DNA from: a virus
Lineage: Duplodnaviria; Heunggongvirae; Uroviricota; Caudoviricetes
DNA: 30,649 bases
IMG/VR virus record: IMGVR_UViG_2802429244_000003
Strand: one strand, 5' to 3'
Shown here: in pieces, positions 21,553 through 30,649 of the stretch
Layout: each line of letters begins with the position of its first letter
How positions within the stretch are numbered: position 1 is the stretch's first letter
Program-made: the position numbers and the translations under genes
The notes under the pieces: generated by a model
The model's input: the letters and a program-made list of their open reading frames with translations, nothing else
Database searches by the model: none
Told to the model about the DNA's origin: nothing

Positions 21553-22051
21553 CTTCAATGCAATAATCGTAAAACGCCGCAAACTGCTCATCGCGGCGTT
21601 TTTTTTCATCTTCAGAAGGAATAAGCACCGACAATTTTTTATTCAGATCAGCGACGCTGCCCTCCAGTTTTTCAATGAGCGATTCAATATCATCTTTTTC
21701 TGACCGCAATGCCGTCGGTGGCGTCTTCAGAGAACCAGTAATTCTTCCCGGTAGCTTTCCTTTGTAGGTTATCCACACATTCTGCGCCTCTAAAATTATG
21801 GGGCGCTTTTCCGGCGACTGCTCATCCCCTTCACATAACCCGGCAGCAACATCCAGGAATACCTGTCTGATTCTCATTCTGGCTGCTGCCTCATAAAACT
21901 CCAGTGCAGCACCTTCAACACGATCCATAGTGATATCCAGCTCAAAAATCTCACCGTCAAAGCGTTCTTTGTCCTGTAAGGCTAAAGTTACCGTAACTTT
22001 ATGCTCAAAATTACGGACTCCTTTCACAACCAGTTCATAGTCTTGAGTCAT
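21500..22051 (-). CDS. Hypothetical soluble acidic 183-aa protein inserted between holin and endolysin
   Basis: AGGAGA Shine-Dalgarno; start 5 nt after the holin stop; no transmembrane segment or catalytic motif seen; position is analogous to the ydfR-type gene that sits between holin and lysozyme in some E. coli prophages, but the family is not recognised. Confidence 0.55.
   Translation of the reverse strand: MTQDYELVVKGVRNFEHKVTVTLALQDKERFDGEIFELDITMDRVEGAALEFYEAAARMRIRQVFLDVAAGLCEGDEQSPEKRPIILEAQNVWITYKGKLPGRITGSLKTPPTALRSEKDDIESLIEKLEGSVADLNKKLSVLIPSEDEKKRRDEQFAAFYDYCIEVTRRNFVKIFEEGKSLQ
21573..21606 (+). terminator. Strong rho-independent terminator on the plus strand (GC stem followed by T8)
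   Basis: AACGCCGC, loop, GCGGCGTT, then TTTTTTTT; 20 nt after the 86-aa ORF stop; lies inside the 3' coding sequence of the minus-strand 183-aa ORF. Confidence 0.6.
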
Positions 22052-22055
22052 TGGA

Positions 22056-22271
22056 TTACTCTCCTCTCGCAGCCTTACGCCTGTCTTCTTTAATCTTGAA
22101 ATAAAGATTTGTCAGATACGTCAGCAGGCCAAAAACCAGGCTACCCAGCACACCGATTGCAGCCCACTGTGACGGAGTTACTTTATCGAGTAACTGCAAT
22201 GCCCAGAAACCAGCATTACCCGCCGATGTGCCATAGGCAACACCTGTTGTTAACTTATCCATTGATTTCAT
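22056..22271 (-). CDS. S: Holin, phage-21 S-type pinholin with dual-start motif
   Basis: [71 protein letters not shown] matches phage 21 S pinholin as recalled; Met1 and Met4 give the antiholin/holin dual start. Confidence 0.85.
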
Positions 22272-22490
22272 ATCCTCACCCCGATGTACACGGATGGTGC
22301 AATATGTTTGAAAATATCGGAGTCTACGGGGTAGTTTTTACAGCACACGTTGTTCTCAACGGCGCTAAAAAAACATACACATTAAAAATGTGGTTAATTA
22401 TTTTGAAAGAAAATCATATATTAATTAATAATACGAGAAATGTTTTCATATTTAGTGTACTGTATACGGCCATTTATACAGGAAAAGCCT

Positions 22491-22661
22491 ATGTCAGAAC
22501 GTAAAGACTCAAAATCACGCCGTAATTATCTCGTTAAATGTTCCTGCCCAAACTGCACCCAAGAGTCAGAACACAGTTTTTCAAGAGTACAAAAAGGTGC
22601 CCTTTTGATCTGCCCTCATTGCAACAAAGTATTCCAGACAAATCTTAAAGCTGTAGCCTGA
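22491..22661 (+). CDS. Candidate small zinc-ribbon protein (56 aa; CxxC, 17 residues, CxxC)
   Basis: MSERKDSKSRRNYLVKCSCPNCTQESEHSFSRVQKGALLICPHCNKVFQTNLKAVA; AGGA 7 nt upstream; hairpin terminator about 60 nt downstream; possible TTGAAA / TAATAA promoter elements upstream. Confidence 0.4.
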   Translation: MSERKDSKSRRNYLVKCSCPNCTQESEHSFSRVQKGALLICPHCNKVFQTNLKAVA

Positions 22662-22718
22662 TTGATTTTATTCGCAACAAGTATTTTTTATATTTTAATA
22701 ATATATTTAAAGCAGATA

Positions 22719-22745
22719 ATAAAAAACCCGCCTGAGCGGGTTTAA
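22719..22745. terminator. Bidirectional hairpin terminator, stronger on the minus strand (T6 tail)
   Basis: AAAAAACCCGC, CTGA loop, GCGGGTTT; on the minus strand the stem is followed by TTTTTTATT; lies between cspB and the holin. Confidence 0.6.
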
Positions 22746-23024
22746 TATTGTGGTGCTTTTTGTGAGAGTCATCCACTTACGCACTTTGTTTTGCTATGCC
22801 AGCAGTTAGCTTCTGCTGTAAAACTATTCATGCAGCAAACCTGCACTTCACCACAATGGTTAGCATACTTTTCCTGATTAAGTTATTACCAAATATGCTG
22901 GCCATTGTTTCATGTATTGGACCGCCTTACTCTTTATTAAAGAGATCCAATATTCACCACTCTGTCTGTATCTCCACTCAGGCATCAGCCTTCTTCGTTA
23001 TCGTATACAGACAAACTATGAATT

Positions 23025-23240
23025 TTAATCATTAATGATGACATTTGCTGCTGCAGGACCTTTAGCACCACTCTCTACAGAGAAGGTAACCTTTTGACCT
23101 TCAAATAAGGTTCGATAATTATCATTCTGAATCGCAGAAAAATGCACAAACACATCTTTACTACCATCAACAGGAGAAATAAAGCCAAAACCTTTATCAG
23201 CGTTAAACCATTTTACTAAACCAGTCATTTTATTTGACAT
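23025..23240 (-). CDS. cspB: Cold shock protein, CspA family (CspB-like)
   Basis: [67 protein letters not shown]: cold-shock domain with the RNP1 motif KGFGFI; long 5' UTR region upstream. Confidence 0.9.
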
Positions 23241-23539
23241 TCTACATTCCTTAACTTGAGCCTTTCGGCATAAATGGTTTGTATAACAGAAACGACTTCG
23301 TACTTAATTGGAGAGACTCAAAGAAGGAATAAGTGAATAACACCTGAAATGAGAACTGCTTTAGTAAACTACTTCGTATATCGTCTGTTCTTCAAACCGA
23401 CGCAATCATTAACGCATAGTTGAACATATGAAGCAATGTTTATTTTAGACATCCAGCCATCTTCAACCCCATCAAAAAACTATAGCTTTCTTCAGGAACG
23501 TGTGTATAGTGCGCCAAGTTATCAGTATTAAGGAATTTT

Positions 23540-23752
23540 TTGTCCCGTAAAATGACAGGAATTGTCAAAACCTTTGACTACAAAAGCGGCAAAGGTCTTA
23601 TCATACCATCCGATGGCCGTATCGATGTCCAGCTGCACGTTTCTGCTCTCAATCTCCGCGATGCAGAAGAAATTACCACAGGATTACGCGTGGAATTTTG
23701 CCGAATCAATGGTCTACGTGGACCTTCAGCTGCCAATGTTTATCTTTCATGA
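23540..23752 (+). CDS. cspF: Divergent cold-shock-domain protein (CspF/CspH-like, lacking the canonical RNP motifs)
   Basis: (M)[69 protein letters not shown]; the track start is a TTG with AGGA 5 nt upstream; an in-frame ATG lies 12 nt downstream. Confidence 0.85.
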
Positions 23753-23806
23753 GCTATATTAAAGCTTTTACTTTAAGCCCCATCGGATCACACATGGAGA
23801 GTTTTT

Positions 23807-23896
23807 ATGAATAACCCCGTCTGCCTTGATGACTGGTTGATTGGCTTTAAAAGCTTATGCTGTACTTTGGCCGTAATAGCTCTGCTAATAATATAA
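23807..23896 (+). CDS. Candidate 29-aa hydrophobic peptide (type-I-toxin-like small membrane protein)
   Basis: [29 protein letters not shown]; GGAGAG Shine-Dalgarno 5 nt upstream of the ATG; below the ORF-track size cutoff; found by manual reading. Confidence 0.3.
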
Positions 23897-24044
23897 TAAG
23901 CAGACTCATTGTGTTTAGGGACATTGTACTGGAAGAAAACATTTTAAACATCAGGCAAATAACTAAGTCACCAGCTAAATAATAAGTTAACAGACATGGG
24001 TCCCGGGATGAGGTTCAACATCACCATTGCCCCATTTAAAGCAC

Positions 24045-24080
24045 AAAACCCGCTCATCAGCGGGTTTTCTAATTTCTTTC
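24045..24080 (+). terminator. Hairpin terminator downstream of cspF and the small peptide ORF
   Basis: AACCCGC, TCATCA loop, GCGGGTT, then TTCTAATTTCTTT. Confidence 0.5.
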
Positions 24081-24358
24081 TAAACATCAGATATACAAAG
24101 CCCATCATTGAGGGAATCTTATCCATATTTTTTGAAAAATGCAAGCATCACGTTGCCATCTTCATTGAAAAACCTTTATCGTGTTACTTTTATCAATTGC
24201 ACTTCAGCATAGAGTTATCCCAGGCAGCACTTTAAAGACTTCTACATTACACACACCTTGTCTCCCCTTCTCGTCATATCTGCAAGACCGATATGCATGA
24301 CGCAGTACATACGCTGAACTGCTTTATCCATCAGCATATTCTAGTGCTAAAGCGACTT

Positions 24359-24386
24359 CAGTAGCAGAAGCAAAATTCTGCTACTG
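24359..24386. repeat. Perfect 11-bp inverted repeat, CAGTAGCAGAA and TTCTGCTACTG separated by a 6-nt spacer
   Basis: Read directly from the sequence; about 140 bp upstream of the DUF883-like gene; no T-tract on either side, so it is unlikely to be an intrinsic terminator. Confidence 0.5.
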
Positions 24387-24523
24387 TGCCAAACAGGAGT
24401 AAACGTCATTTTATGTAATGTTGATTGAGTGGTCATAGTATCACCTCAATAACAGCTCTTCGCCCTATCATTGAAAGCATATCTGCTATAATTAAAAAGC
24501 CACTTAACATCAGGACTTCAAAC

Positions 24524-24709
24524 ATGACTTCAAATCAATCTGAAAACGAAATAGTTAATACTGTCAAAAAATATGCATCATGTGCTGACGATGCTTTGCA
24601 GGCAGGCAAAGAAAACGTTAAAGATAAATTTAGAAATTATCCACTGACTAGCGTGGTGGTCGCTCTAAGCATAGGGTTAACGCTTGGTTTTATTATTGGC
24701 AGAAAATAA
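24524..24709 (+). CDS. Small C-terminally membrane-anchored protein, DUF883-like (ElaB/YqjD/YgaM family)
   Basis: MTSNQSENEIVNTVKKYASCADDALQAGKENVKDKFRNYPLTSVVVALSIGLTLGFIIGRK; the C-terminal single transmembrane segment ending in basic residues is typical of the family; AGGA upstream. The track ORF would extend to a TTG at 24425. Confidence 0.55.
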   Translation: MTSNQSENEIVNTVKKYASCADDALQAGKENVKDKFRNYPLTSVVVALSIGLTLGFIIGRK

Positions 24710-24766
24710 TCTTAAGCCTCCCATAAGTCGTACACAATCACATCTACCAATTAATGTTCCATTAGT

Positions 24767-24794
24767 AAAAAACCACCTCCTGTGGAGGTGGTTT
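24767..24794. terminator. Bidirectional hairpin terminator (CCACCTCC, TGT loop, GGAGGTGG), T6 on the minus strand
   Basis: A-tract and T-tract flank an 8-bp GC-rich stem; ends the plus-strand DUF883-like gene and the minus-strand small ORFs. Confidence 0.6.
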
Positions 24795-24845
24795 AAGGAT
24801 AGCAACAAAACACAACCTACTTTAAACGGCTATATTCTGCTATAT

Positions 24846-24965
24846 CTAAATAATAGGTTCTCTTTTATCATCCGGTGAAAAAGGGTTCAATGGTTGCCCC
24901 TCATCAGGACGCTCAACGGGCTCATCATCAGGCTTACGGTCATCAAAATCTGGATGTTCTGACAT
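24846..24965 (-). CDS. Candidate small hydrophilic protein (39 aa, acidic, proline-rich)
   Basis: MSEHPDFDDRKPDDEPVERPDEGQPLNPFSPDDKREPII; G-rich sequence upstream (GGGTGG) but only 3 nt from the ATG; followed by a terminator about 55 nt downstream; below the ORF-track cutoff. Confidence 0.3.
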   Translation of the reverse strand: MSEHPDFDDRKPDDEPVERPDEGQPLNPFSPDDKREPII

Positions 24966-25000
24966 ATTCCACCCTAGTATTTTTATGCAGGAAAGATTAT

Positions 25001-25108
25001 TTACTCTTTCCGGTTGTCTTTTTTATTATCCTTACCCTTACTATCCTCATTGTTTTTATTCCTGTCATGAGATTTTTCATTTGAATCACTTACATATAAT
25101 GTATTCAT
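25001..25108 (-). CDS. Candidate small hydrophilic protein (35 aa, lysine- and asparagine-rich)
   Basis: MNTLYVSDSNEKSHDRNKNNEDSKGKDNKKDNRKE; GGAG 5 nt upstream of the ATG; in tandem with the 39-aa ORF. Confidence 0.3.
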   Translation of the reverse strand: MNTLYVSDSNEKSHDRNKNNEDSKGKDNKKDNRKE

Positions 25109-25707
25109 GGGGACTCCAGTTTTTTAACAGCACAATGCTGTATCTGTAATTATAGATGCAATTAATCATTATGGTATGTATGTTTCATGCACAAATCAGA
25201 AACGCATCTAGTGCTTTAATTAATATGGATTTTATTGCTGTAGATTTACAAAAATTTTCATAATTAACCAGCAATATAAGACAAATATCTCATAACATGA
25301 GGGAAATCAAGCTCATTTAAAGCAATTTATAATTTTCATCCTACTATTTTCCCTACACTGCCAACACCAGTTTCGTCGCAACACTCTGACAAGACACCTA
25401 TAAAATCAGTTTCGTTATCACCTTAATTTTCTTCATGGGTAACAAACCGGTAATACATCGATAGCCTGATTGATGCACGTTACTGTTACCTCTTCCCTGC
25501 ATCAGGATGGCTTCCCAAGATGATATGGTTAATCACACTGGAACATTCACGCATAACCGTTTCCTTCATATCCTGCCGTTTTAGCATGTCTTTTCCCCTT
25601 CTTGTTAATATCAATGACTAACACAAATCTAAAAAAGCCAGCAATGTAAAAAAACTGCATTCACGGCAACCAGAATGGTTACCGTTCTGCACAAAGTTTA
25701 TGTCCAC

Positions 25708-25727
25708 AAAAAAACCACTCTGCGCGG
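25708..25727 (-). terminator. Candidate tR'-like terminator about 110 nt downstream of Q
   Basis: On the minus strand a short GC stem (CCGCGCAGAGTGG) is followed by TTTTTTT; position is analogous to lambda tR', where Q-dependent antitermination acts. Confidence 0.35.
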
Positions 25728-25837
25728 CTTATTGATATTTTCCACCGGTATGCATATAAGGCTCATCATTGGAAAACTCTTTGCACGTTTCCTTAGAAAA
25801 TACAATCGTTATGTCGCCATCGTTCGGTGAAAATCTT

Positions 25838-26590
25838 TTATCTTGTCACTTTTCTCAGTTGTGCTTCTGCATACGCTTCTTCCTGCCAGCACTTTGTTAC
25901 CAGTTTATCAATGACGTCCGCATACCCCTTGTACCACTGATAATCTGTCAGGTCCGGTACCAACTTCTGGACATGACGTCGTGCCAGTGTGGTCGGTAAA
26001 CGACTAAACCTGTTTCCATTACAACGCCCACAAATCTTATAAACCGGTACGCCATGAAGCCGGGTTCTTTTTTCATCCAGGACAATACCTTTACCCTTAC
26101 ACCCTCTGCACGCTGTGCTGACTTCGCCCTTACCATGGCAATGCTGACATAGTTCCTTCCCCCATTCTTCCTTGATAACAGATTCCCCACTTCTGTAGTG
26201 TTTCACCACTTCGCGCAATACATTATGAAATCCCGTACCTGCACAATGTTCACAGCGAGCCTTACTTGCCGCAGACCTGGAATAATCAGCAAAGGCAAAA
26301 TTCACAAGGTAAGGGATGATCTGTAACCGGGTTTCTTCACTCAATTTGTTCAATATCGGGTTATCCAGTGCCATCGCGTAATTGAGCAGACCTTCAATCG
26401 CAAACTGAGGGTCCTGAACACCAACTTTTGCCAGGAATAAGGCAAACCCAAGCGGTGCTTTCGACTGCACCATCCCCTGCGCAGCCATCACATCCGTAAT
26501 TGCTAAACCACCTGAGTCTGTCGCCGGTGCGTCATCGCTCAATTTTGGAGGTTTTGGGGAGTAATATTTTGGTAAGGCTTCAAGGTTCAT
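25838..26590 (-). CDS. Q: Late gene antiterminator Q (zinc-binding)
   Basis: 250 aa from MNLEALPKYY...; contains CEHCAGTG...CQHCHGKG...CRGCKGKG...CGRCNG Cys motifs; GGAGA Shine-Dalgarno; located upstream of the lysis cassette as quuQ is in the Qin prophage. Confidence 0.8.
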   Translation of the reverse strand: MNLEALPKYYSPKPPKLSDDAPATDSGGLAITDVMAAQGMVQSKAPLGFALFLAKVGVQDPQFAIEGLLNYAMALDNPILNKLSEETRLQIIPYLVNFAFADYSRSAASKARCEHCAGTGFHNVLREVVKHYRSGESVIKEEWGKELCQHCHGKGEVSTACRGCKGKGIVLDEKRTRLHGVPVYKICGRCNGNRFSRLPTTLARRHVQKLVPDLTDYQWYKGYADVIDKLVTKCWQEEAYAEAQLRKVTR

Positions 26591-26603
26591 GCTCGTTCTC
26601 CAC

Positions 26604-27653
26604 TTACGCCAATACGCCAATTGCCAGCGCACGATCGATAAAACGAAATATCAGCTCCAGCTGGGAGCCATACTTCTTTTCAAATGCCACGGTATCCGCA
26701 TGCAGCTCGTCGTGATGCTTTCTGCACAAAGGCAACACAAAGAGGTCATGCGCTTTTGTACCCATTCCGCCCTGACCATGACCAATCAGGTGATGGGGAT
26801 CGTCAGCTGGCTTACCACAACACGCACACGGCTGTGTCTTCACCCAGCGCGTGTATTTCTCATTTACCCAGCGGCGACGTTTAGGTCGCTTCATGAAAGA
26901 TTCCGGAGACTCCGGATCAACGGCAATGCTGACCTCCGTCTTTTCCTGTGGTGGGTTCTGTTGCTGGTGGGCGTGAGGCGGTAGCACAATATTTTTTGTG
27001 CGCTGCTTCAGTATACTGGTGGCTGTCTGCTCTCCCGGTATGATGTCACTCTCGCGGTAAAGCGAGCGGATTTTTTCAGCACGTAACCCCAGAGAACGAC
27101 GTAATACTGCCTCCGGTAGCGCGTCCGCTACCTGATTGCAGACCGCCCACCAGGATAATTCAGCCAGCGATAATTCCCGCTCCTGCGTGCCATTCATTGC
27201 ATGGCGTATGACGTCAATCATCCATGCTGACAGGTTTTGATGAGCAAGTTGCCCGAGTGATTCGGATGTCTGGTCACGCAGCTGGTTGTCGCAGTGCCAG
27301 CACAACACCATCGCGCCGGTACCGTAACGATGTATGACGATTTCACTGTGATGATAGTCACCATGAGGCCACTGGCAGGATTTGACATGACGCAACAGCC
27401 AGTCAGACAGTGCACCAGCGCCGCCAGCAGCACGAATCACCCGCTCATCGCTGAAAAATGGCAGTAATGATTTATCCTCCGCCAGCGGCTGGCGAACTGC
27501 AGGGACGACTCCGGATGGCAGGCCGCACATGCTTTTTGGTTCCGGCTCCACCAGCACGCGAGGATTATGAAATACCCGCATGGATTCACGGCCCGGTTTT
27601 AGCACCACCAGCCCAAGTTCCGGTACCGGAACAGGTCGAAGTAATACCCGCAC
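26604..27653 (-). CDS. DUF968-domain protein (ydfU-like; Cys/His-rich C-terminus)
   Basis: 349 aa; C-terminal CACCGKPADDPHHLIGHGQGGMGTKAHDLFVLPLCRKHHDELH; immediately upstream of Q, as ydfU is in Qin. Family assignment is from memory. Confidence 0.7.
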   Translation of the reverse strand: MRVLLRPVPVPELGLVVLKPGRESMRVFHNPRVLVEPEPKSMCGLPSGVVPAVRQPLAEDKSLLPFFSDERVIRAAGGAGALSDWLLRHVKSCQWPHGDYHHSEIVIHRYGTGAMVLCWHCDNQLRDQTSESLGQLAHQNLSAWMIDVIRHAMNGTQERELSLAELSWWAVCNQVADALPEAVLRRSLGLRAEKIRSLYRESDIIPGEQTATSILKQRTKNIVLPPHAHQQQNPPQEKTEVSIAVDPESPESFMKRPKRRRWVNEKYTRWVKTQPCACCGKPADDPHHLIGHGQGGMGTKAHDLFVLPLCRKHHDELHADTVAFEKKYGSQLELIFRFIDRALAIGVLA

Positions 27654-28480: not shown

Positions 28481-28636
28481 TTACTCCTCAGGTTCGTAAG
28501 CTGTGAAGACAGCGACCTCCGTCTGGCCGGTTCGGATTCGTACCTCGCAGAGGTCTTTCCTCGTTACCAGTGCCGTCACTATGACGGTTAAACAGATGAC
28601 GATCAGGGCGATTAACATCGCCTTTTGCTGCTTCAT
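28481..28636 (-). CDS. hok: Hok-family type I toxin (small membrane-depolarising peptide)
   Basis: MKQQKAMLIALIVICLTVIVTALVTRKDLCEVRIRTGQTEVAVFTAYEPEE, matching the Hok/Gef family (HokD-like) as recalled. Confidence 0.9.
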   Translation of the reverse strand: MKQQKAMLIALIVICLTVIVTALVTRKDLCEVRIRTGQTEVAVFTAYEPEE

Positions 28637-28693
28637 AGCCTGCTTCTCCTTGACCTTTCGGTCCGTAAGAGGCAATCTATATGTGACGAGCAT
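28481..28693 (-). CDS. mok: mok, the in-frame upstream reading frame whose translation is coupled to hok
   Basis: 70-codon ORF sharing the hok stop, with a 19-codon N-terminal extension (MLVTYRLPLTDRKVKEKQA) and GAGG upstream; the leader resembles the plasmid R1 hok leader (...CCUCUUAC...CAAGGAGAAG...AUGAA) as recalled. Confidence 0.6.
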   Translation of the reverse strand: MLVTYRLPLTDRKVKEKQAMKQQKAMLIALIVICLTVIVTALVTRKDLCEVRIRTGQTEVAVFTAYEPEE

Positions 28694-28789: not shown

Positions 28790-28817
28790 ATTCTACTTAA
28801 CTCTCCTTTTCCCGCAA
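28790..28817 (-). promoter_or_regulatory. Candidate sigma-70 promoter for the hok/mok mRNA (-35 TTGCGG, 16-nt spacer, -10 TAGAAT)
   Basis: Read on the minus strand about 95 nt upstream of the mok start; the predicted transcript 5' end would lie near a GCUUGAGGC motif resembling the 5' end of R1 hok mRNA as recalled. Confidence 0.45.
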
Positions 28818-28904
28818 ACCGTTTTTATCCCCATCGGCAAATCGAATGCACCACCAGCGCCACCGCCATCGCAATTCCTACCGTAGTGAATGCCTCAGGT
28901 CAGG

Positions 28905-29474
28905 TCATTGATTCACCTCCTGCGGTGGTTCCGGTAGCGGCATCCAGTGAGTTGCTTGCTCAATACCATTACCCGGCTTAATCGTTGCATCTCCGCGCCG
29001 AAAGGTGCTTCCGGTATAGCATGCGGAGCATATTAGCGGTTCAACCAGAGAGCTATCGAAATTCACCGAAATAAGCACGTTCTGGCCCTTTTCAGGCATT
29101 CGATCACTACAGCTTATCCAACTATCCGGAGTTCCCGGAGAGTTGCCATTTACATCGAAGTTTGGCTCTGCGTCCTGAACCAGGAGGATGTAACCATTCT
29201 TGGCTGTATCAAGTTCTAACGCCTCGGTGACGGTGCCGAAATAGCGATTACCTAAATCAGCATCACAAGTGCTTACATCAATGGAAACCTCCATGCCTTC
29301 GATTAATTCTGGCAAGTTGTAAGTTTGGCTTACAGGCTCGGCTTCCAGCGATGTCAGTGCAATTTTGAATAACTCACCCTCTACTCGTGCTACCCCTGAA
29401 TTGGGATGGCATTTCGCAATCGCTATTTTTAATTTGGCTTCTTCGATTAATTGCTCTTTGGTTAATTCAGTCAT
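28905..29474 (-). CDS. DUF551-domain protein
   Basis: 189 aa with C-terminal ...ATHWMPLPEPPQEV, the W-x-P-L-P-E-P-P signature I associate with DUF551 prophage proteins. Confidence 0.65.
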   Translation of the reverse strand: MTELTKEQLIEEAKLKIAIAKCHPNSGVARVEGELFKIALTSLEAEPVSQTYNLPELIEGMEVSIDVSTCDADLGNRYFGTVTEALELDTAKNGYILLVQDAEPNFDVNGNSPGTPDSWISCSDRMPEKGQNVLISVNFDSSLVEPLICSACYTGSTFRRGDATIKPGNGIEQATHWMPLPEPPQEVNQ

Positions 29475-29483
29475 TTTTCATTA

Positions 29484-29505
29484 CCGCCCTTTCGGGCGGC
29501 CTCCT
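29484..29505 (-). promoter_or_regulatory. Structured translation-initiation region: AGGAGG, then a 6-bp GC stem with GAAA tetraloop, then 9 nt, then the ATG of the DUF551 gene
   Basis: Minus-strand AGGAGG CCGCCC GAAA GGGCGG TAATGAAAA ATG; the only strong Shine-Dalgarno is 31 nt from the start codon unless the hairpin folds. Confidence 0.4.
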
Positions 29506-29576
29506 GATGATTTGAGGGTGCAGAAATCCCTCCGGTTAAGGATTAAATTTTATTTACAGAACTGAATTTAATTATT

Positions 29577-29592
29577 CAGATATACGTATCTG
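29577..29592. repeat. Perfect 16-bp palindrome CAGATATACGTATCTG
   Basis: Self-complementary as read; lies in the AT-rich 146-bp spacer between the methyltransferase stop and the DUF551 start. Confidence 0.5.
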
Positions 29593-29620
29593 TAACCTTA
29601 CGAACCTACTCACTGGATGC

Positions 29621-30094
29621 CTATTTCATAAAAATAATCCAGTGGGTTTTATCGTTTTTTTCTGTTCGTTGACCGATAACAGGTTTTCTGTCGGTCAGTA
29701 CCAATATCTGGCGAACAGGTATTTGCGTTTCATTCCATTTAAAAATCAGAGCGCCGTATGGACGCAACACACGAAAGGCTTCTTTAAATCCCTGCCGCAA
29801 ATCATCACGCCAGGTATCTTTATTCAGCCGTCCATATTTCTTTCCCATCCAGGCGTTATCACCAACACGCTCAAGATGCGGAGGGTCGAATATAACCATC
29901 GAAAAAGATGCGTCTGCAAATGGTAGTGCACGAAAATCAGCTATCAGATCAGGACTGATAATCAGGCGTCGTCCATCACACAATGTGTGCTCTTCCTTTC
30001 TGATATCGCTAAATATCGCCCGGTCGTCATTCTTATCGAACCAGAACATGCGACTGCCACAGCACATATCAAGAATGGTTGCCGGTGCACTCAC
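29621..30094 (-). CDS. Small putative SAM-dependent DNA methyltransferase (orphan; DPPH motif)
   Basis: 157 aa; ILDMCCGSRMFWF (motif-I-like Gly-rich SAM site) and VIFDPPHLERVGDNAWMG (a DPP[Y/F/W/H]-type catalytic motif of amino-methyltransferases); start overlaps the upstream stop as ATGA. Confidence 0.55.
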   Translation of the reverse strand: MSAPATILDMCCGSRMFWFDKNDDRAIFSDIRKEEHTLCDGRRLIISPDLIADFRALPFADASFSMVIFDPPHLERVGDNAWMGKKYGRLNKDTWRDDLRQGFKEAFRVLRPYGALIFKWNETQIPVRQILVLTDRKPVIGQRTEKNDKTHWIIFMK

Positions 30095-30513
30095 TGCGCT
30101 ACCTCCTGAAAATTACCCTGATAGAAAGCCAGTACACGCTGCATAGCTTCGCTCTTCCGGCACTCGCGACAGATTATATTCAGGCGCCTGTCGTAGCGGC
30201 GTATTTCTCCGTCTGGTAATGACCAGATAAGGTCAGGATCAACCACAACCGTTTTTTTCACCTTTGCCCTGGATAATTTTTTGCGGGCGTTTTGCCAATC
30301 CTTACGGGCCTGTTCAGACGGAAATAACCCGTAACCAGAGTTGTATACATCGCCACTGGCAACCAGCTCTCTGGCGAGAACGCTCATCAGATATCTTGTC
30401 GCACCTGTCTTGGCTTCCAGTTGCCGTAACGTCTCGCGCCCACTCCGGCGTACCAGCTCAACAACCTGCCCTTTAATTTTTTCCCGCTCTTCTTGTGTAA
30501 ATACTTTTGCCAT
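30091..30513 (-). CDS. Hypothetical nin-region protein (141 aa)
   Basis: From MAKVFTQEEREKIKGQVVELVRRSGRETLRQLEAKTGATRY...; GGAGG 5 nt upstream; contains a C-terminal CRECRK; translationally coupled to the methyltransferase gene. Confidence 0.5.
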   Translation of the reverse strand: MAKVFTQEEREKIKGQVVELVRRSGRETLRQLEAKTGATRYLMSVLARELVASGDVYNSGYGLFPSEQARKDWQNARKKLSRAKVKKTVVVDPDLIWSLPDGEIRRYDRRLNIICRECRKSEAMQRVLAFYQGNFQEVAQ

Positions 30514-30528
30514 AAGCGCCTCCGGCAA

Positions 30529-30649
30529 TCACTTTTCCGATACAACACGGCGGGAAGAATCAGTAATCTGTCGAACAATATCCCGGTGCTTGTTCAGCTC
30601 CCGCAGCGCGGCGCAGACACGCTCCCACTTCTGGACATGATTTTTCGCC
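30529..30649 (-). CDS. 3' end of a hypothetical gene that continues past the right edge of the window
   Basis: Open minus-strand frame from the window edge reading ...AKNHVQKWERVCAALRELNKHRDIVRQITDSSRRVVSEK, with its stop 5 nt before the Shine-Dalgarno of the next gene. Confidence 0.35.
   Translation of the reverse strand, partial: AKNHVQKWERVCAALRELNKHRDIVRQITDSSRRVVSEK

Follow-up and report, generated by a model that had tools for sequence, protein, structure and literature searches.

What does a phage gain from a methyltransferase of 157 residues that travels without a restriction enzyme, and does the gene whose end overlaps its start have any part in the answer? The locus that raises the question lies on the minus strand of the IMG/VR record IMGVR_UViG_2802429244_000003, a caudoviricete sequence of 30,649 nucleotides that we refer to in its entirety as the window. 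A preliminary description of it had read an orphan DNA methyltransferase translationally coupled to a gene of unknown nature, and had suggested that the two act together. We find that the methyltransferase gene is an intact copy of an already catalogued and very common phage gene, and that the overlapping gene, a member of the DUF977 family, appears to be an operon neighbour and not a working partner. On balance, the enzyme is probably a self-sufficient orphan amino-methyltransferase, dependent on S-adenosylmethionine (SAM), that acts on DNA and is used for anti-restriction, although that its substrate is DNA is something we infer.

The open reading frame (ORF) was found where it had been placed and at the length given for it (Table 1), and a profile search assigns its product to a class. 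It matches PHROG 954 ('DNA methyltransferase') over residues 5-157 (E 1.8e-85) as well as two models of the PADLOC defence library, PDLC03288 (MTase_II, 'Type II methyltransferase'), where residues 6-157 cover positions 3-161 of the 169 in the profile (E 1.2e-71), and PDLC03730 (oMTase, 'orphan methyltransferase'; E 2.5e-49, profile positions 5-152 of 153). These full-length matches, together with a motif IV of the kind found in amino-methyltransferases, bear out the description of the protein as a small SAM-dependent methyltransferase. From Pfam there is a match to the generic Methyltransf_11 that only just exceeds its threshold (22.0 bits, with the cut-off at 21.2) and one to Methyltransf_25, and a scan of the protein against NCBIfam gave nothing meaningful, which is presumably why RefSeq carries the ORF in matching prophages simply as 'class I SAM-dependent methyltransferase'. 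The RefSeq annotation of those prophages chooses the same GTG start, the earliest that is possible downstream of the in-frame upstream stop.

The family comprises 7468 clusters at 90% identity and at least 1115 at 50% identity (E <=1e-10) and, to judge from these matches, is widespread in the genomes of phages, many of them temperate. Of 5426 complete E. coli genomes, 947 (about 17%) carry the gene. Identity to the window protein is 60-65% in Gordonia, 57-60% in both Corynebacterium and Acinetobacter, 55% in Bacteroides, 52-57% in Porphyromonas, 52% for gp50 of Listeria phage A118, 52-54% in Enterococcus, about 50-54% in Vibrio, 46% for gp28 of Streptococcus phage T12, and 35% in a haloarchaeal virus. 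Against relatives that are 91-98% identical in DNA, the ratio of non-synonymous to synonymous substitution rates (dN/dS) is 0.11-0.24, and the methyltransferase gene is therefore under purifying selection; against relatives that share 58-81% of residues, synonymous sites are saturated. With its profile matches and this conservation, the ORF is a real gene and no chance reading frame. Nothing substantial sets the window protein apart from its family as represented by WP_021575571.1, A118 gp50 and T12 gp28: with WP_021575571.1, the allele common in E. coli, it shares 97% identity, its size and the DPPH, and four substitutions separate the two. To our knowledge no member of the family has an experimentally defined substrate or motif.

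An AlphaFold2 model built from 88 diverse representatives is confident throughout, with a mean predicted local distance difference test score (pLDDT) of 95.8 and a predicted template modelling score (pTM) of 0.89. It contains all seven strands of the class I sheet, so that the catalytic fold, whose incompleteness in a structure prediction would have spoken against the preliminary description, is complete, but only three helices (residues 82-87, 95-109 and 127-131). Residues 10-25, with the conserved RMFWFDK, follow motif I as a modelled loop at the usual site of helix A, and helix B is replaced in the model by a beta-hairpin of strands 34-37 and 43-46. As modelled, the protein is a complete but unusually stripped-down class I methyltransferase core. 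Seven residues, D9, D30, P48, P71, P72, L90 and R108, are invariant across the 88 representatives, and all are present in the window protein; L8, C12, G13, R32, D49, D53, F54, D70, H73, Y87, G88, W95, K119 and W120 are among others conserved in at least 90%. From textbook knowledge of class I methyltransferases, we take D9/G13, D30 and D53 to be the SAM-binding positions of motifs I, II and III. The DPPH motif had been correctly recognised and occurs in 87 of the 88 representatives. The SAM-binding motif had been called glycine-rich, which it is not: LDMCCGSR has one glycine and two cysteines and is the local version of the family's LDxCCGxR. The core is basic, with an isoelectric point of 9.07 for the window protein and a family median of 8.7. 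The 157-residue model shows the catalytic core without a separate domain, and leaves no space in which a target-recognition domain could fit; the sole insertion is the 13-residue hairpin, which is poorly conserved and differs in length in several members (P0133, P0154, P0250). It may be this hairpin that tunes specificity.

That the gene is an orphan is the part of the question most readily answered. None of the scanned neighbours in the window is a cognate restriction endonuclease, as had been noted earlier, and DUF977, DUF551, hok and DUF968/HNHc_6 are all without a PADLOC match. DUF968/HNHc_6, which lies about 2 kb downstream of the methyltransferase, was considered as a restriction partner and rejected, being a common lambdoid nin gene in addition to having no match in PADLOC. 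For a wider view we took the 80 best IMG/VR loci that encode the methyltransferase (58-98% identity), and saw no recurrent endonuclease among the larger neighbour clusters inspected. On the evidence of these neighbours, the methyltransferase does not belong to a Type II restriction-modification system.

Could the overlapping gene then be the missing half of the enzyme? The overlap itself is real, although it is GTGA (30091-30094) and not the ATGA that had been described. Read directly, the junction CAGGAGGTAGCGCAGTGAGTGCA consists of AGGAGG, a spacer of seven nucleotides and the GTG/TGA overlap, and the AGGAGG is a strong Shine-Dalgarno sequence and the methyltransferase's own ribosome-binding site. 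A consensus scan of 28800-30649 detected nothing promoter-like, nor did it detect a terminator-like site separating the two genes on their strand, and a single transcript is therefore the simplest reading of the pair. The upstream gene had been counted as 141 residues and regarded as unknown. From its ATG it encodes 140, and these match PF06163 (DUF977) at E 1.3e-29 and 103.4 bits, where the threshold is 22.1, with residues 1-136 covering all 134 positions of the profile, and PHROG 142, 'Ren-like exclusion protein' (E 5e-48), which makes it a YdaW/LygF-like protein. In its model, pLDDT exceeds 90 for about residues 10-70, which form a helix-helix-helix-wing arrangement, and the C-terminal half is poorly modelled; Foldseek gives weak matches to winged helices of the MarR, GntR, IclR and ArsR types (E about 0.03). 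The N-terminal half is winged-helix-like as predicted, and a two-subunit enzyme could be imagined in which DUF977 supplies the DNA recognition that the methyltransferase lacks, the more so as the overlap implies co-translation and as DUF977 lies directly upstream in roughly 23 of 36 full-length E. coli copies of the methyltransferase gene drawn as an evenly spaced sample.

The distribution of the two genes makes such an enzyme very improbable. Of the 80 viral loci, only 2 have DUF977 no more than 4 kb from the methyltransferase, and it is absent beside three methyltransferase copies that are 90-93% identical. Clustering of the genes directly upstream in 81 loci gives 52 unrelated groups, and that of the downstream genes in 79 loci gives 53; in E. 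coli O157:H7 and O111, the methyltransferase sits in another prophage region where other genes adjoin it and no DUF977 precedes it. Nor do the ranges of the two families agree. The methyltransferase spans phyla, in phages of Gram-positives and Bacteroidota and in a haloarchaeal virus, whereas DUF977 (887 clusters) is enterobacterial only, with Escherichia or Shigella names on all 120 among the matches listed. DUF977 is also far commoner alone: parts of a 1.25-kb query containing it and its flanks match in 4301 of the 5426 E. coli genomes, against the 947 with the methyltransferase. The overlap with whatever lies upstream is itself the rule, since the methyltransferase N-terminus, with starts extrapolated from tblastn, abuts or overlaps the preceding gene in 63 of 81 loci, and the GTGA is therefore ordinary phage gene packing. 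The earlier suggestion that the overlap means joint action is not supported by these comparisons, and DUF977 was rejected as a specificity subunit on its co-occurrence.

DUF977 may have a story of its own. Members of PF06163 are labelled 'YdaW family' or LygF in phage records, and the gene resembles lambda Ren and Rac YdaW in its place directly after the replication genes, where ren also sits in lambda, as it does in its PHROG 142 and PF06163 matches. Going by phage records, we take ydaW of Rac to belong to the DUF977 family. In an overexpression screen, ydaW was among the prophage genes that blocked the toxicity of retron-Sen2 RcaT (bioRxiv 10.1101/2020.06.22.160242). The upstream gene may, on this hint, serve against host defence in a way that would be independent of the methyltransferase.

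The substrate is the least secure part of this reading. Several observations point to DNA. In 26 of the 88 representatives, the block that runs from motif IV through strand 5 is similar to positions 2-59 of PF01555 (N6_N4_Mtase), in every case below threshold (13-18 bits in these relatives against a cut-off of 26.7); by comparison, RsmD-like matches three members and UPF0020 one. With phmmer, the same block aligns weakly to the Thermus methylase TTHA0409, and Foldseek matches the DNA enzymes M.TaqI, M.BceJIV and TTHA0409 at E 2e-4 to 7e-4. The labels given to the family by PHROGs and PADLOC favour DNA, as does the basic character of the core. The company that the gene keeps points the same way, as it comes after genes for replication or recombination in the phages A118 and T12, in Gordonia phage Pickett and in the prophage type of the window, a C5 DNA methylase lies directly downstream in 8 of 79 loci, and in Pickett a large 'DNA methylase' is adjacent to it on the upstream side.

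A good deal weighs against DNA as the substrate. No dedicated DNA-methylase model in Pfam or NCBIfam reached threshold, and in the Pfam scan none of PF01555, PF02086, PF02384 and PF05869 matched the window protein at E <=1; the word 'DNA' that PHROGs, PADLOC and phage records attach to the family may have been inherited with the annotation, and a literature search on the family found no experimental work. The top structural neighbours are the uncharacterised archaeal methyltransferase PH0226, which is also the best sequence-related solved structure (E 5e-6, with none beyond it), and the RNA methyltransferases nucleomethylin, Bud23, Trm11, TrmN, RsmC and TrmM, so that DNA enzymes rank below RNA ones in the structural search, although fold searches do not separate the two. 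In the model, there being no target-recognition domain and helices A to C being missing or replaced, the way in which DNA would be bound is left unexplained. Identities of 45-65% across phyla are higher than we would expect of phage DNA methylases, and the window allele carries V115A and G145E, two substitutions that are rare in the family.

Some of these points would suit an amino-methyltransferase for RNA, making N2-methylguanosine or N6-methyladenine (m6A) in tRNA or rRNA, or for some other non-DNA target such as a nucleotide or a protein glutamine, and thereby altering host translation or blunting host defence. We regard this as rather unlikely. An RNA-binding module (THUMP, PUA or S4) is neither present nor recurrently fused, all scores lie in a narrow band of generic class I matches, and similarity to N6_N4 enzymes extends to 26 of the 88 members as against at most three for any RNA family. 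The gene neighbours, moreover, are DNA replication, recombination and DNA-methylase genes, and PADLOC files the family as a Type II or orphan methyltransferase. The RNA amino-methyltransferases Trm11, TrmN/Trm14, RsmC and TrmM share 13-19% identity with the window protein and no family-level sequence match; they are cellular housekeeping enzymes with RNA-binding or duplicated domains, THUMP among them. A somewhat better prospect, though still a minority one, is that an enzyme of about 150 residues with no recognition domain has an activity other than ordinary site-specific DNA methylation, either near-sequence-independent formation of m6A or N4-methylcytosine on single- or double-stranded DNA, or a counter-defence in which a universally conserved target, RNA or nucleotide, is methylated. 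Either activity would explain the identity of 45-65% that is kept across phages of at least five bacterial phyla.

With the beta-class N6-adenine and N4-cytosine DNA methyltransferases (PF01555; M.RsrI, M.PvuII, M.BceJIV, TTHA0409 and the M.EcoGII type), the window protein shares a (D/S)PP(Y/F/H) loop after strand 4 and, following motif IV, a loop, a long helix and then an 'RVLkpgG' strand, in addition to the profile similarity and the Foldseek matches to M.BceJIV and TTHA0409 given above. It differs from them in scoring below threshold, in being about half their size and in lacking a target-recognition domain; SAM motif I is C-terminal in the beta class, whereas in the window protein it is N-terminal and the motif order is not permuted. 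M.EcoGIX, M.EcoGI/M.EcoMV and M.EcoGII were considered by description as matches and rejected; M.EcoGIX is a plasmid-borne, single-strand-specific enzyme, and on this comparison of descriptions nothing links any of them to the family.

Similar in character is PamA of the Staphylococcus aureus mosaic phage phi11, likewise a tiny orphan phage enzyme (141 residues), with an (N/D)PP(Y/H) motif near residue 65-70 and a gene just downstream of replication genes. PamA, with its NPPY and its GATC target, is nevertheless rejected as a characterised relative, because it belongs to a different family: PF05869 matches PamA at E 5.6e-30 and has no match in the window protein, BLASTP between the two gives E 0.15, and PamA has no N-terminal LDxCCG. 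Expression of PamA, a phage DNA adenine methyltransferase, makes S. aureus DNA sensitive to DpnI (PMC12435837). Small size alone is therefore no bar to DNA methylation.

How might such an enzyme be used? In the account that we favour, the methyltransferase gene would be transcribed in the early rightward operon, where it follows the replication genes and the gene for the Ren-like DUF977 protein, a product that forms no part of the putative enzyme. During lytic growth the methyltransferase would methylate exocyclic amino groups (N6 of adenine or N4 of cytosine) on replicating phage DNA, with a specificity that is probably short or relaxed because a target-recognition domain is absent, and that the hairpin would possibly set. 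Progeny genomes would thus enter their next host shielded from restriction. In the lysogen the gene would probably be silent, as are other prophage methyltransferases.

An alternative places the main role in the lysogen itself, where the enzyme would act as an epigenetic regulator that alters host gene expression, like PamA in S. aureus. That precedent, although set by an unrelated prophage methylase (PMC12435837), and the fact that the gene is intact and under purifying selection in many prophages lend it some appeal. It is improbable all the same. The gene lies inside an early lytic operon, and no promoter-like site that would serve it alone was detected. Work on E. coli ST131 and group A streptococci has shown that prophage orphan methylases from families other than this one are, as a rule, transcriptionally silent in the lysogen, with no trace in the methylome (PMC4659465, PMC8597746). 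Such silence fits a role in the lytic cycle.

Whether this particular copy still works is a separate matter. From the window protein to the common allele WP_021575571.1 the changes are Y113S, A115V, V132I and E145G, and the four nucleotide changes behind them are all non-synonymous. The family mostly has V or T at residue 115 and G at residue 145, where the window has A and E, each unique at its position among the 88 representatives, and the O157:H7 copies include pseudogenes. All this could reflect an allele of reduced or lost activity in a prophage that is decaying. We doubt it, since the reading frame is intact, the invariant residues are all kept and the model is confident throughout, and four changes are too few for a test of selection. 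Elsewhere, in E. coli O157:H7 strain 2571 (locus L087, 4001-4474), a copy of 97% identity is found in another prophage region, which is degraded, adjoining a yfdR-like 5'-deoxynucleotidase and an exonuclease remnant; it has an internal stop, and its annotation is that of a pseudogene.

Other members of the family vary around the same core. Many Leclercia, Citrobacter, Klebsiella and Enterobacter carry versions of 248 residues (P0010, P0013, P0084 and others) with a conserved C-terminal extension of about 90 residues, which has no Pfam match and is not present in the window protein. N-terminal extensions of relatives were rejected as a conserved extra domain, being mutually unrelated in the 15 sequences inspected; their Pfam matches are isolated one-offs (HTH_23, DUF6291, ASCH), and they are probably miscalled starts or sporadic fusions. 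The C-terminal tail of a 304-residue member (P0125) seems to be the source of the lone weak match to DUF551 in the family scan (E 0.012); in the window, the gene that comes after the methyltransferase is itself a DUF551 gene. Five loci (L046, L048, L053, L056 and L076) have in common a gene of 242 residues directly upstream of the methyltransferase, which by eye is ASCH/PUA-like and has no Pfam match. In the family-wide scan one member had a weak ASCH match (E 3e-4), the attribution of which to P0144 was not reproduced in two direct scans, and in Gordonia phage Pickett (L004 gene 54) an 'ASC-1' gene lies three genes upstream of the methyltransferase. A loose association of the methyltransferase with putative readers of modified bases is possible.

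Table 1. Features of the methyltransferase locus and of the neighbouring early region, in window coordinates.
Feature	Coordinates	Strand	Description	Basis or match
Methyltransferase gene	29621..30094	minus	157 aa; GTG start, TAG stop	ORF, family profiles, AlphaFold2 model
Motif I, ILDMCCGSR (residues 7-15)	30050..30076	minus	SAM-binding loop after strand 1; D9 invariant	
Beta-hairpin (residues 33-47)	29954..29998	minus	between strands 2 and 3; candidate specificity element	
Motif IV, DPPH (residues 70-73)	29876..29887	minus	GAC CCT CCG CAT; catalytic loop after strand 4 (64-69)	read directly
Gene junction	30091..30107	minus	AGGAGG 30102-30107, 7-nt spacer, GTG 30092-30094 overlapping TGA 30091-30093	read directly
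DUF977 gene (YdaW/LygF-like, 'Ren-like')	30091..30513	minus	upstream gene; 140 aa; ATG at 30513, TGA at 30091	PF06163, PHROG 142
DUF551 gene	28905-29474		downstream of methyltransferase	profile scan
Hok/Gef toxin gene	28481-28693	minus		PF01848 E 2.9e-23; PHROG 251 MokW-like
DUF968/HNHc_6 gene	26604-27653	minus	349 aa; HNHc_6 nuclease-like C-terminal part	PHROG 96 'HNH endonuclease'
Antiterminator Q gene	25838-26632			

The window is a lambdoid prophage of E. coli of the Rac/Qin type, and the methyltransferase lies between the replication genes and Q, in the equivalent of the nin region to which it had been assigned. Over the 1.25 kb around both genes, identity is 95-96% to chromosomal prophages annotated 'DUF1627 | DUF977 | class I SAM-dependent methyltransferase', and the methyltransferase gene alone is 99.2% identical to the copy in E. 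coli O177:H21. Matching prophages have the order repressor region, YdaT, replisome organiser or DnaC-like gene (ydaV), DUF977, methyltransferase, small genes, DUF551, hokD, DUF968, (RusA) and Q, with DUF1627 and replication genes upstream in matching E. coli prophages. Endolysin, Rz and terminase genes were confirmed in the window, and no tRNA genes were found in it. The stretch from Q to the lysis genes (window 21900-25900) has few long ORFs and carries a Qin-type block, cspB/cspF/ynfU/essD, that is 97% identical over 4 kb in 40 E. coli genomes. The long Hok/Gef ORF probably takes in a mok-like leader; the gene agrees with the hokD annotation of related prophages. Beyond the methyltransferase stop, the spacer at 29475-29620 (146 nucleotides) is A+T-rich by eye and contains the short palindrome CAGATAcgtaTATCTG and, directly 5' of the DUF551 start, a perfect GC hairpin, CCGCCC-tttc-GGGCGG (plus strand, 29484-29499); neither was scored as a terminator.

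As a single instance this gene carries little weight, as alleles whose protein is 97% identical are already in RefSeq and about 17% of complete E. coli genomes have copies. Some interest attaches to the family, which has no recognition domain and is unusually conserved across phages of distant hosts, and its members are among the smallest amino-methyltransferases of which we are aware. We found no report of its substrate or motif in the literature. If near-sequence-independent methylation of DNA should prove true, the enzyme would be a compact tool in the manner of M.EcoGII; if it is a broad anti-restriction DNA methylase, it might possibly make a useful compact reagent.

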